From Chlamydiales bacterium (GTDB lineage Bacteria > Chlamydiota > Chlamydiia > Chlamydiales > SM23-39), in assembly GCA_965261025.1 (NCBI GenBank), contig OZ253438.1:690001-722000 (forward strand): a stretch of DNA of 32,000 nucleotides. Reading direction: 5' to 3'. The notes below the pieces were generated by a model. That model searched no databases. It was not told the DNA's origin and was given only the letters and a program-made list of their open reading frames with translations. Both the position numbers and the translations under genes were made by a program. Shown in pieces: positions 25,022 through 28,000 of this stretch; position 1 is the first letter of the stretch, and each line of letters opens with the position of its first letter.

Positions 25022-28000
25022 ATGGATTCAAAAACCGTCGAAAGTAAAGGAGAAGGGAAAGAAAAAAAACGGCTTACTAAGGAGCAAGTCACAGTAGTAA
25101 AAAGAAGTGGCGCCCTTGTTCCTTTTCAAGAAGAAAGAATTTATAAGGCTTTAGAAATGGCTTTTCGTGACACAAAAAAAATAGGAAAAGAAAGCCTTTT
25201 TCCCAAAGAACTAGAAGCTACCCTACAAAATATCTGCGAAAAAATCGTTTATCAACTTGTAAAACTAGCCCAAAAAGGCGCTTGTCTCACGGTAGAGGGA
25301 ATCCAAGATTTTGTAGAAGTCTTTTTGATGAAACAGGGTCATCATGACGTAGCCAGGGACTATATCCTCTACAGAGACTCGAGAAAACTGGAAAGGGAGA
25401 GCTCGATTCAAAATATAAAGGTCTTTAGACACGACCAAATTACCCAGGTTCGCTTTAATCCAATGAAGCTTACCCTTTCTATAGAGAGATGTTTTCAACT
25501 TGCCAAAACAAATAAAACCAAAGAAGAGATTTTAGAGGGAACCAATCTTATCGCACAAAAAATCATAGAGCATGCCTTGCAAGCTTCTAAAACAGGAACC
25601 CCTCTTTTTGTATATACCTTGCAAGATTGGATAGAGCAAGAACTCATGAAAGAGCAGTTTTTTCCTGAAGCCAAAGCGTTTATCCTATACAGAGCAGAGA
25701 AGGAAAAAACAGAACAAAAAATAGAAACATTCCCAGAAAAAGAGACAGAAAAACAATTTACCATCCTTACAAAAGAAGGGGCTCAAAAAACCGTTACAGA
25801 AAGACAACTCAGGGCTAAATTCCGTTTTGCCTGTAGAGATTTAGAAGGAGTCGATATAGAAGAGCTGGTGCATACCTCCTTACTTTCTTTCTATGAAGGG
25901 ATCAAGGAAAAGGAGCTAGATCTTTGTAATATTTTTTCTGCTCGCTCCAAAATTGAGAAAGATCCAGTTTACTCTAAAGTATCTGCTCGCTTGCTTCTAG
26001 ATCAAATTTACCAAGAAACTTTGGGAATTTCTTTTTCCGATCCTTCTTTGGAAAGAACTCACAGAAAATATTTTTCCAAATATATAAAAAATGGAATCTC
26101 CTATGAAAAACTCTCCCCTAAACTTCTTGATTTTGACCTAGAAAAACTCGCTTCTTCCTTAGTCTTACAAAGGGATGATCTCTTTCAGTATCTGGGACTA
26201 CAAACTCTTTATGATCGCTATTTCATTCACCATGAGGAAAAAAGACTAGAAACACCCCAAATTTTCTGGATGAGAGTTGCTATGGGATTGGCTCTTTTGG
26301 AGGAAAATAAGACAGAAAGAGCCCTTGAATTTTACCACGTACTCTCCTCCTTTTTGTTTGTTTCCTCTACACCTACCTTATTTAACGCAGGAACCCTCCA
26401 CTCTCAACTTAGCTCTTGTTATCTCTCTTCCGTGGAGGATGATTTAGTACATATCTTTAAAATTATCTCAGATGATGCCCAACTTTCTAAATGGGCAGGA
26501 GGAATTGGAAATGACTGGACTAATGTCAGAGCTACCGGATCTCGAATTAAAGGAACCAATGGCAAATCACAAGGAGTTATTCCTTTTTTAAAGGTGGCTA
26601 ATGATACTGCTGTAGCAGTCAACCAATGTTTTTCTCCAGAAACTCCTATTTTTACTCAAAGAGGAATCCTCCCTATTTCTAAAGTGAGACAAAAAGATCT
26701 CGTTTTAGGAATCAGTGGAACTTATCGAGAAGTACTCAATACTTTTGCCTACCCCCAAAAAGATCCTATGCTCGCCTTAGAGGTTCAATATTCTCTTCGT
26801 AAAACAGTGGTAACAGAAGCCCACCCTTTTTACGCTCTTTGTAATATCCCCGAGCAAGAAACAACGGAAAAAACAAGGGAAAAACTAAAACAAGGATCCT
26901 ACCAACCCAAATGGACTGAGGCAAAAAACCTCAAACAAGGGGACTATGTAGCTCAAGTGATCCCTCAAGAAATCGTAGCCCAAAGGGGGGTTGAAGAAGA
27001 GGACATGCGCTTTTATGGAATCTTTCTTGCACAAGGACATGTTTATGAAGGAGGGCAAAAATGGAGCCTTTCTGCAAATTCTCAAAGAGACTCTTACGTA
27101 AATTTCCTTCGAACTTACCTACAAAACCAAGCTATTTCTTATCAGGAAATCCCTCAAAAAGAGGGAGAGATAAGATTTTGTATAACCCCTGATCTGAAAA
27201 TATCCAAAGAGGGAACAGGGAATGAAAGTCTAGAGGTTTCCCCTTTTTTTACGCCTTTTACTAAAGATGATTTCTATTTTGAAAAGACAGGAAAGAAAAT
27301 AGCTCCTCGTTTTTCTCACCTTCCTCTTTCCCAAACTCTTGCTTTAGTGCAGGGACTTTTGGAAGCGAAAGAAGGTCTATCCGAAAAAGGAGAGATTTCT
27401 TTTTCAGACTCTTCTGAGGAACTCGTAGAAGGACTTCGCTATCAACTTCTTCGAATGAAAATCCCTTCCTCTATAGGAGAAGAAGACTCAAGGGCCCAGG
27501 AGAACTCTTCTTCCCTTTTTTCTTTAAAAGCTCTAGCAACAGGCCCTCTTGCTAAAAAGGAAGAGAATCCACTTTTGACGGAGGCAACCTGGTTTATCCA
27601 CGAAAATTTCCTTTTTAGTCCCATCAAAGCGGTCCTGCCCTCGCAAACAGCTCCTTTCGTATTCGATCTTCTTGTAGAAGGAGACGAATCTTACATGACT
27701 ACTTCTGCCTTAGCTCACAATGGAGGAAAACGAAAGGGGGCTATGTGCGCTTATCTAGAGACTTGGCATCTCGATATAGAAGATTTTTTAGAGCTTCGAA
27801 AAAATACAGGAGATGAGAGAAGAAGAACTCATGATATGAACACGGCGAACTGGATTCCAGATCTTTTTATGAAAAGGGTAGAAAAAGACGAAATGTGGAC
27901 TTTATTTGATCCTGCAGAAGTGTTTGACTTACATGATCTTTATGGGGAAGATTTTGAAAAAAGATACACCTTTTATGAAAAAGAAGCAGAAAAAGGAAAG

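Follow-up and report, generated by a model that had tools for sequence, protein, structure and literature searches.

The large subunit of ribonucleotide reductase (RNR) encoded in the window, by which we mean the whole 32-kb stretch of DNA that was analyzed, is interrupted by a bona fide class-1-type LAGLIDADG intein that lies in specificity loop 2 of NrdA and is followed by Gly at position +1. This gene is not alone in having Gly+1, which characterizes an entire intein allele family of wide distribution. By analogy with type A bacterial intein-like (BIL) domains, we put at roughly 55% the probability that the window's NrdA is spliced without a +1 side-chain nucleophile, i.e., by thioester formation, Asn cyclization, and attack by the Gly amine. 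The family-wide Gly+1, the existence of Ser+1 branches, and the degenerate endonuclease in the window's copy go beyond the original prediction.

The features of the locus are compiled in Table 1. The insert begins with CFSPETPI and ends with TTSALAHN, and it gave weak Pfam matches (LAGLIDADG_3, Intein_splicing, and Hint_2). Its AlphaFold2 model was good (pLDDT 81, pTM 0.81) and matched PI-SceI, the TliVMA intein, and PI-PfuI with E values of 1e-16 to 1e-10 and TM scores of 0.63 to 0.68. The HINT splicing domain corresponds to about residues 1 to 115 and 321 to 365 of the intein. As expected for a class 1 intein, the element combines the HINT fold and blocks A, B, F, and G with Cys1, T-x-x-H, a terminal His-Asn, and an in-frame insertion whose removal restores the host; the +1 residue in the window's NrdA is Gly (GGA) and not the nucleophilic residue of that class. 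The original description of a 365-aa insert with Cys1, TEAH, block F, and a terminal His-Asn held in all its coordinates when the sequence was read, and the blocks align across 79 relatives.

Table 1. Positions in the window of the interrupted nrdA gene, its intein, and neighboring features
Feature	Position	Strand	Remark
Pair of NrdR-box-like palindromes preceding nrdA	24891-24906 and 24924-24939	+	Tentative operator; box 1 alone fits the consensus
nrdA precursor ORF, 1419 aa with intein	25022..29281 (including stop codon)	+	NCBIfam PRK12365
N-extein, 535 aa, ending in AVAVNQ	25022..26626	+	ATP cones, all-alpha domain, first half of barrel
Intein, 365 aa, in frame	26627..27721	+	HINT domain split by LAGLIDADG domain
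Cys1 (TGT), N-terminal nucleophile	26627..26629	+	Cys in 79/79 orthologous inteins
Block B, T63-E-A-H66	26813..26824	+	Thr and His invariant in 79/79
First LAGLIDADG motif	27008..27040	+	Catalytic Asp replaced by Gln136; Asp in 77/79 relatives
Second LAGLIDADG motif	27338..27376	+	Catalytic Asp replaced by Lys248; Asp in 74/79 relatives
Block F with Asp347	27653..27700	+	Asp347 invariant in 79/79
Block G, TSALAHN, ending in His364-Asn365 (CAC AAT, 27716-27721)	27701..27721	+	Invariant in 79/79
Gly+1 (GGA), first C-extein residue, equivalent to E. coli Gly295	27722..27724	+	Gly in 80/80 bacterial loci examined
C-extein, 519 aa, starting with GGKRKGAMC (rest of loop 2)	27722..29281	+	Catalytic residues, C-terminal CESC
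nrdB, 20 nt downstream of nrdA	29301..30323	+	Motif read directly from sequence

Removing the insert in silico restored NQGGKRKGA exactly as in intein-free NrdA, and the resulting 1054-aa protein aligned with Pseudomonas aeruginosa NrdA (5IM3) without a gap at the junction. Among 120 close intein-free homologs, 112 read NQ/GG[KR]R.GA (slash, junction), and a motif scan of the remaining eight found no junction; close relatives with 85% identical exteins also lack the intein and read NQGG. Because the residues at the two insert ends differ (Q/N and C/G), the boundaries cannot slide. Together with the match of the product to intein-free NrdA, this rules out alternative junctions, in agreement with the earlier claim that none would restore the host motif. 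The last N-extein residue, Gln535, is equivalent to E. coli Gln294, and Q-G-G-K-R in the window aligns with E. coli Q294-G-G-V-R298, which places the insertion site in loop 2 (E. coli residues 292 to 301, including Gln294 and Arg298; PMC4728125), as the original prediction had it for the Q294-R298 region. In the E. coli enzyme, most contacts with the substrate and effector bases come from backbone atoms of loop 2, including the Gln294 carbonyl (PMC4728125).

The NrdA flanks scored 1466 bits against NCBIfam PRK12365 (cutoff, 1350), and the public protein collection contains the same precursor as P0152. The claim that the catalytic residues of the exteins are intact was confirmed, with SSC, SNLCTE, AVCNLGS, TTYY, and a C-terminal CESC all present in the translation. 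With a full-length model match, these residues, and an adjacent nrdB, the protein has the attributes of a class Ia/Ic large subunit. The nrdB gene is intact, and its product is a class Ic-type R2 with Phe at the radical-Tyr position. When the palindromes that precede nrdA were scanned with the NrdR consensus, box 1 passed and box 2 did not; tentatively, the pair is a candidate operator and points to a regulated, expressed operon.

Relatives of the window's RNR intein are encoded in 369 species genomes. We surveyed junctions, codons, and reading frames at 80 bacterial loci, each from a different species, and residue conservation over 79 orthologous inteins. The junction reads Asn/GGKRKG at all 80 loci, preceded by His to give His-Asn at 79 of them and by Ser to give Ser-Asn at one (L012). 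The +1 Gly is encoded by GGC (45 loci), GGT (15), GGA (10), or GGG (10); 60 of these 80 codons are one step from Ser or Cys, and none has changed. Because the 80 loci agree with only synonymous codon change, Gly+1 is selected and not an error. The Gly first read at +1 in this one sequence holds across the loci, and the comparison proposed originally, with intein-free NrdA and with intein alleles at the same site, gave Gly+1 at all bacterial loci and Ser+1 in the wider family.

These data also bear on the possibility that nrdA is dead or dispensable, with another RNR supplying deoxynucleoside triphosphates, or that the Gly+1 codon is misread. The window covers 32 kb of a 1.42-Mb contig, and a class II RNR is also present in Azotobacter (PMC4465626), which is among the hosts of the family. 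Against this, the window's ORF is intact with all catalytic residues and an intact nrdB directly downstream, at 79 of the 80 loci the intein has no interruption and shares its reading frame with the two parts of NrdA, and there is no other RNR large subunit in the 32-kb window. Moreover, chlamydiae normally carry nrdAB only. A sequencing error is ruled out by 80 genomes with four different Gly codons. Given that 79 orthologous arrangements are intact, that the catalytic residues are invariant, and that the Gly codon varies only synonymously, the dead-gene option raised in the original prediction is very unlikely and is the least probable reading that we considered. Fragmentary, frameshifted homologs from the first protein search were rejected as evidence of pseudogenes, since that search covered only proteins no longer than about 630 aa and the loci are intact at the genome level.

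Cys1, Thr63, His66, Asp347, His364, and Asn365 are invariant in all 79 orthologous inteins, and this set is exactly that needed for thioester formation and Asn cyclization. That Cys1 and His-Asn never vary among 79 species would be senseless unless both junctions underwent chemistry, which argues against an intein that is never removed, either because NrdA works with a 365-aa domain in loop 2 or because an inactive precursor acts as a brake or switch. Loop 2 is surface accessible and flexible, but it must close over substrate and effector (PMC4728125). Inteins in replication proteins have been proposed to be posttranslational regulators; nevertheless, we regard retention as distinctly improbable.

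The bacterial hosts include Chlamydiota, Verrucomicrobiota, several proteobacterial orders, Acidobacteria, and Armatimonadota, and LAGLIDADG motifs are intact in this range; "Ca. Thiothrix singaporensis" (CP059265) and Chlamydiota MAGs are among the hits. The family as a whole spans at least six bacterial phyla as well as giant-virus-type RNRs. It is large and horizontally spread, and all bacterial members lie between Gln and Gly-Gly. Repeated invasion by the intein implies that the invaded RNR stays functional. A tblastn search of 50,697 phage records with the P0001 intein gave no match at an E value of ≤1e-10. Our full-text literature searches found no paper on a Gly+1 RNR intein family; a large intein survey does not discuss +1 residues (PMC4760082), and the Methylococcus and Thiomargarita genome papers mention RNR inteins without junction detail.

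The endonuclease domain of the window's copy differs from that of its relatives. The two motifs read FLAQGH and LLEAKEG compared to LLGDGH and LLETDGG in relatives, so that neither retains the acidic residue present in each motif of an active LAGLIDADG endonuclease. The endonuclease part is 35% identical between the window and its relatives compared to 64% among the relatives, while the HINT parts of the window's copy hold 49 to 55% identity. With both catalytic Asp residues gone, the homing endonuclease has decayed, and the splicing domain is maintained. Drift of the endonuclease together with retention of the HINT parts indicates that selection acts on processing and not on homing.

Based on type A BIL domains, we infer the three chemical steps of the proposed route and their order as follows. 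The block B Thr and His would promote an N-to-S acyl shift at Gln535-Cys1 to give a thioester; cyclization at His364-Asn365 would cut the Asn-Gly bond; and the freed, unhindered alpha-amine of Gly+1, which the active site of the intein and the two already folded halves of the RNR barrel would hold close to the thioester, would attack it directly to form the Gln-Gly peptide bond. We counted the nrdA-nrdB operon layout, the intact catalytic residues, and the possible NrdR operator in favor of splicing. Because the loop 2 backbone contacts the substrate and effector bases (PMC4728125), a restored peptide bond is favored over a nick. The route named in the original prediction is indeed described for type A BIL domains, which have no +1 nucleophile and can splice by a proposed sequence of thioester formation, Asn cyclization, and attack by the freed amine (PMC4031507). 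The conservation of Cys1 and His-Asn would be equally expected if the element only cleaved at both ends. Also counting against the route, standard inteins no longer splice when their +1 residue is mutated to Ala or Gly. Type A BIL domains give mostly cleavage products and less splicing, and a Magnetospirillum BIL domain spliced only once its Tyr+1 had become Cys (PMC4031507).

The main rival is autocleavage without ligation, in which the Cys1 thioester is hydrolyzed, Asn365 cyclizes, the intein is released, and the remaining NrdA fragments of 535 and 519 aa stay together as a working enzyme. It would use the same conserved Cys1, TxxH, and His-Asn, and cleavage is the dominant outcome in type A BIL domains (PMC4031507). 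A two-piece NrdA can be fully active, as in Aeromonas phage Aeh1, where NrdA-a and NrdA-b have normal specific activity (PMC3045599). The Aeh1 enzyme resembles the window's in being a large subunit that is interrupted by a mobile element and still active, and is the model for a two-piece reading; however, there a free-standing endonuclease divides the gene itself, the split lies elsewhere (between the equivalents of Cys439 and Cys462), and the pieces require special added tail sequences for activity (PMC3045599). Moreover, a survey of 1200 nrdA genes found none that was divided among several coding regions, so that the pressure to keep a single chain seems to be strong (PMC3045599), and the nick would lie inside loop 2, where the backbone, including the Gln294 carbonyl, reads the effector and substrate bases (PMC4728125). 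On balance, we judge cleavage alone to be unlikely.

The wider family also speaks to this choice. Including the giant-virus-type RNRs, 67 cluster representatives at the same site comprise about 47 with Gly+1 and 20 with Ser+1. The Ser+1 members, e.g., P0187, P0189, and P0190, lie in AT-rich, multi-intein, giant-virus-type RNR genes. They share with the Gly+1 members the site [ND]Q/ and the same catalytic blocks and match the family profile with E values of 1e-60 to 1e-30, but their extein reads NQ/SGKR and satisfies the canonical rule. The intein-free allele closest to them (L081; 94% identical exteins) reads NQGGGKR. In the tree, the Ser+1 branches fall at two places inside the Gly+1 diversity. 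If the Gly+1 members yielded two-piece enzymes, repeated switching between one and two pieces would be needed, since Ser+1 members can splice canonically; because Ser+1 is interleaved and the blocks are the same, it is simpler that both kinds give a ligated enzyme.

We found no intein residue that covaries with Gly+1 versus Ser+1 beyond clade differences and hence no visible adaptation to a different chemistry. This makes outside help conceivable, i.e., splicing by another nucleophile or a helper, be it a side chain of the extein or intein, a small cellular thiol that takes the acyl group, or a host factor. Cys at +9 is common in bacterial C-exteins (GGKRKGA[VM]C); however, it is missing in many Gly+1 hosts, e.g., those with GGKRNGAFAAYL and GGGKRKGSFA, and Cys+9 in the window (GGKRKGAMC) is thereby ruled out as a surrogate nucleophile. 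[quoted passage not shown] We consider such help doubtful, and less probable than cleavage alone.

PI-SceI, the TliVMA intein, and PI-PfuI (from a Pyrococcus RNR), which are canonical class 1 LAGLIDADG inteins, have the same fold, layout, blocks A, B, F, and G, and kind of insertion site as the RNR family. They are followed by Cys, Ser, or Thr, and inteins are stated to insert before C, S, or T (PMC2814812), whereas the RNR family is followed by Gly. The Aquifex aeolicus RNR intein sits in R2 with Cys+1 and was set aside as a comparator. Type A BIL domains, e.g., Clostridium thermocellum BIL4 (PDB 2LWY; Dassa 2004 and Aranko 2013, via PMC4031507), share HINT, Cys1, and His-Asn and lack a +1 nucleophile; the window's element likewise is a HINT domain that ends in His-Asn with no +1 nucleophile, as in their definition (PMC4031507). 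Against PDB, the family profile matched 2LWY with an E value of 0.0049, the gp41-1 intein with 0.0035, and PI-PkoII with 0.0036, and so shows no preference for BIL domains or for inteins. BIL domains are not known to carry a homing endonuclease or to be spread by homing, while the RNR element contains a LAGLIDADG domain and has relatives with canonical motifs in many phyla. BIL domains reside in variable regions of nonconserved, hypervariable bacterial proteins (PMC2814812), while the RNR intein interrupts a conserved motif, NQGG in loop 2 of NrdA. Unlike BIL domains, it has an essential enzyme as its host, lies at an ultra-conserved site there, and is spread in the manner of homing inteins. 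The Gly+1 RNR element thus fits the definition of neither a class 1 intein nor a type A BIL domain.

The closest described case is the Azotobacter NrdA intein (Avin_33290/Achr_15980), reported as a LAGLIDADG intein (PMC4465626), which belongs to the same allele family at the same site. The +1 residue receives no comment in the Azotobacter genome paper (PMC4465626). In Azotobacter vinelandii NBRC 13581 (L075), the junctions read VAVNQ/CFAPET and GLAHN/GGKRKGAVC, and the intein is about 40% identical to that in the window. The Azotobacter copy keeps canonical LAGLIDADG motifs, whereas the window's copy is shorter by 13 aa and has neither catalytic Asp. InBase presumably listed this homolog as "Avin RIR1 BIL"; the names "RIR1 BIL" and "Avin RIR1" were not found in full-text literature searches.

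Textbooks and reviews describe the side chain of a +1 Cys, Ser, or Thr as the carrier of the extein during splicing; the RNR family sits before Gly instead and otherwise behaves as an ordinary mobile intein that has a homing endonuclease and occupies a conserved site of an essential gene in many phyla. With Gly+1 in hundreds of other species, this essential RNR probably relies routinely on some other chemistry to join its exteins. Whether a homing intein lineage joins its exteins by attack of the Gly alpha-amine on the N-terminal thioester, as a further mechanistic class in several hundred bacterial species and giant-virus-type RNRs, seems to us evenly balanced. If the precursors are spliced, RNR would commonly mature in nature by a ligation that needs no +1 nucleophile, a reaction then no longer peculiar to a handful of BIL domains, and such inteins would be useful for traceless protein ligation, with only Gly needed at the junction. 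If they are only cleaved, hundreds of species would live on an RNR with a nick in the specificity loop, an outcome no less surprising. Should the new chemistry hold true, nature would already offer a comparison within a single family, between its Gly+1 and its Ser+1 branches.

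[quoted passage not shown] The NrdA ORF matches NCBIfam PRK12365 with 1466 bits (cut-off 1350), and the match is interrupted at residue 535 by 365 additional residues with the junctions AVAVNQ/CFSPETPI on the N-side and TTSALAHN/GGKRKGAMC on the C-side (slashes mark junctions). Detection of the insert by Pfam was weak (LAGLIDADG_3, 9e-6; Intein_splicing, 1.9e-5 and under its cut-off; Hint_2). Six family members were used for an AlphaFold model, which was confident (pLDDT 81, pTM 0.81); its best PDB matches were all endonuclease-containing inteins, i.e. PI-SceI, the TliVMA intein, PI-PfuI and PI-PkoII, with E-values of 7e-16 to 3e-9 (TM 0.51 for PI-PkoII and 0.63-0.68 for the other three). 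Based on these Pfam and structure-model matches, the insert is an intein with a HINT domain and a LAGLIDADG domain.

Features of the nrdA region and other genes in the window
Feature	Position	Strand	Remark
Tyr/Trp permease	1014-2234		
SET-domain protein	3541-4131		
DEAD-box helicase ORF	14415-15656		
ORF with methylguanine-methyltransferase DNA-binding domain and methyladenine glycosylase domain	15541-16875		longest reading
PIN-PhoH protein	19248-20555		
AT-rich palindrome 1, NrdR-box-like, CTACCATATATAGTGT	24891-24906		upstream of nrdA
AT-rich palindrome 2, NrdR-box-like, GTACTATATCTAGTAG	24924-24939		upstream of nrdA
nrdA precursor, class I ribonucleotide reductase (RNR) large subunit, 1419 aa	25022-29281	+	single ORF
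Cys1, TGT	26627-26629	+	sequence read
TEAH	26813-26824	+	sequence read
His-Asn, CAC AAT	27716-27721	+	sequence read
Gly+1, GGA	27722-27724	+	sequence read
nrdB (R2 subunit)	29301-30323	+	motif read
96-aa ORF, Glu/Lys/Leu-rich, coiled-coil look	30327-30617		starts 4 nt after nrdB

In the nrdB product, Phe occupies the position of the E. coli radical Tyr122, and the motif FFATAESLV has Glu at the position of E. coli Asp84; this R2 signature is that of a Chlamydia-type class Ic (Mn/Fe) RNR. The 96-aa ORF, which has no Pfam match, may be co-transcribed with nrdAB. The two palindromes are 33 bp apart, and only the first has three or fewer mismatches to the NrdR-box consensus (0.17 chance matches expected in the window). 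Elsewhere, the SET-domain protein, the permease and the PIN-PhoH protein have a chlamydial flavour. The gene for the methylguanine-methyltransferase/glycosylase protein probably starts further downstream than its longest reading; the latter overlaps the helicase ORF by ~115 nt.

The boundaries of the intein cannot slide because the residues at its two ends differ, and shifted boundaries were thus ruled out. In-silico excision of residues 536-900 gave a product that aligns without gaps to P. aeruginosa NrdA (PDB 5IM3) over 348 residues, which bears out the original prediction that no alternative junction exists. Among 120 close intein-free homologues, 112 read NQ/GG[KR]R.GA across the junction (exactly NQGGKRKGA in 108), and the nearest, a protein of a Chlamydiales MAG, is 85% identical over 350 aa. 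In E. coli, loop 2 comprises residues 292-301 with the key residues Gln294 and Arg298, and it contacts the substrate and effector bases mostly through backbone atoms, including the Gln294 carbonyl (PMC4728125). The Q-G-G-K-R of the window aligns with Q294-G-G-V-R298; therefore, the intein lies between the equivalents of Gln294 and Gly295, and the assignment of the site to loop 2 in the original prediction was correct.

Scanning GTDB (one genome per species) with the intein profile identified relatives in 369 species, and the best 80 loci were examined. Their hosts include Chlamydiota, Verrucomicrobiota, the Thiotrichales Thiothrix eikelboomii, Thiolinea disciformis and Thiofilum flexile, Azotobacter vinelandii, Fulvimonas, Rudaea, Burkholderiales, Methylococcales-type MAGs, Acidobacteria and Armatimonadota. 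All 80 loci read VNQ/C and N/GGKRKG in the same frame. Simple pattern extraction gave a stop-free intein between open NrdA frames in 79 of them; the 80th, locus L012, is also open and departs solely by a C-terminal Ser-Asn. Gly+1 is encoded by GGC (45), GGT (15), GGA (10) and GGG (10), i.e. synonymous change has been free and amino-acid change nil, although a single substitution would give Ser or Cys at 60 of the 80 codons. Cys1, Thr63, His66, Asp347 (block F), His364 and Asn365 (intein numbering) are invariant in 79/79 relatives. These data support that Gly+1 is a trait of the whole intein family and no accident. Taken together, they make a sequencing error or a dead gene, the latter an option in the original prediction, very unlikely and the least probable of the readings considered, also in light of the apparently selected processing domain; no second RNR large subunit was found within the 32-kb window. 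That the intein is never removed is highly improbable, being at odds with the invariant junction residues. In two Thiotrichales genomes (L004, Thiofilum flexile DSM 14609, and L057), the same NrdA carries in its C-extein a second, fully canonical intein (EIAV/CFPAGT...LVVHN/CNLGS), the +1 residue of which is the Cys462-equivalent redox cysteine; Gly+1 and Cys+1 inteins thus occur together in one precursor as an internal control.

When 1.84 billion cluster representatives were searched with a profile, 6935 matches were obtained at E ≤ 0.001 (136 at E ≤ 1e-30), among them the window's own protein (P0152, a single-member cluster). In a separate protein homologue search, all matches were ~630 aa or shorter against 950-1400 aa for family proteins, and full-length proteins, including P0152, came only from the representative search; we therefore rejected a reading of the short matches as pseudogenes. 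The junction pattern was present in 67 of the best 150 representatives, always after the same [ND]Q (67/67), with Gly+1 in ~47 (GGKRKG, GGGKRKG, GGNKRPG) and Ser+1 in ~20 (NQ/SG[KR]R.GS). The Ser+1 inteins reside in AT-rich RNR genes that often contain several inteins and whose exteins match giant-virus MAG contigs. Gly+1 and Ser+1 members have the same catalytic blocks. A rough neighbour-joining tree places the Ser+1 members in two distinct clusters within the Gly+1 diversity, which implies at least two switches. Intein-free giant-virus RNR alleles (L081-L160, IMG/VR) vary at loop 2 (NQGGGKR, DQGGGKR or NQSGKR). Of these, L081 is nearest to the Ser+1 host P0189 (94% identical to its exteins) and reads NQGGGKRNGSFA versus NQ/SGKRNGSFA in P0189, i.e. 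GGG in place of S-G, which suggests co-conversion of the flank during homing, the intein bringing its own +1 Ser.

Relatives have canonical LAGLIDADG motifs (YGILLGDGH and LLETDGGVS, the Asp being present in 77/79 and 74/79), whereas the window intein, 13 residues shorter, reads FLAQGH and LLEAKEG with Gln136 and Lys248 in place of Asp. Its endonuclease region is 35% identical to those of relatives (64% among themselves), while identity is 49% and 55% in its two HINT halves (62% and 61% among relatives). Based on the lost Asp residues and this uneven divergence, the homing endonuclease is almost certainly inactive and the processing domain appears to be still under selection, as would be expected for a host that relies on the intein chemistry. 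The G+C content equals that of the surrounding gene, and the copy looks like an old resident. We note that the L012 copy (Chlamydiales MAG, match 3001-4131), which ends ALASN/GG and so has Ser instead of the penultimate His, has LLGAGH as its first LAGLIDADG motif and may be on its way to endonuclease loss.

The canonical pathway cannot run at Gly+1 because its second step needs a +1 side chain. The conserved residues are precisely those required for the two junction reactions, with Cys1 and Thr-x-x-His serving thioester formation on the N-side, and His-Asn and the block F Asp serving Asn cyclisation on the C-side. Type A bacterial intein-like (BIL) domains also lack a +1 nucleophile, and thioester formation, Asn cyclisation and attack by the freed amine have been proposed for them (PMC4031507). 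By analogy, Cys1 and Thr-x-x-His would form the thioester, His-Asn and the block F Asp would drive cyclisation, and the freed amine of Gly+1, the least hindered amine, would attack the thioester and join the exteins; the two RNR barrel halves could keep the ends close to each other once the C-junction has been cut. We put the probability that this route operates at roughly 0.55. Double cleavage to a two-piece NrdA would account for the same conserved residues, phage Aeh1 provides a precedent (PMC3045599), and cleavage dominates in BILs (PMC4031507); however, the Aeh1 enzyme requires special tails, and none of 1200 surveyed nrdA genes is split (PMC3045599), making this alternative unlikely. Another nucleophile or a helper is more doubtful still, since Cys+9 is not conserved and the family occurs in a very wide range of hosts. 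Splicing by amine attack is supported, indirectly, by the spread of a homing element, over six phyla or more, within what is often the sole aerobic RNR gene, by the dependence of loop 2 on an intact backbone and by the canonical Ser+1 relatives interleaved with Gly+1 in the tree. The interpretation originally offered is thus supported and extended by the family-wide Gly+1, the Ser+1 branches and the decayed endonuclease.

The element resembles a class 1 intein in appearance but has Gly at +1, while the literature rule is that 'Inteins are inserted before C, S, or T' (PMC2814812). It shares the lack of a +1 nucleophile, and putatively the route, with type A BILs; however, it is not one of them, because it sits in an ultra-conserved site and carries a homing-endonuclease domain. 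Its sequence shows no preference for BILs or for inteins, with E 0.0049 for the BIL structure 2LWY versus 0.0035 for an ordinary intein. The Azotobacter member was annotated plainly as a LAGLIDADG intein without comment on +1 (PMC4465626). Our literature search found no published analysis or test of the loop-2 Gly+1 NrdA intein family. It is likely that at least one member had already been catalogued. The InBase entry for the Azotobacter member is presumably 'Avin RIR1 BIL', in which case the curators noticed the missing nucleophile. The sole indirect support for this label is that InBase did contain BIL entries (PMC2807308). The element is therefore an intein by anatomy and life style that is BIL-A-like at +1, and the window copy, with its degenerate endonuclease, belongs to a large family, in which the Gly+1 anomaly is real, widespread and directly testable, with a plausible mechanism already on record.
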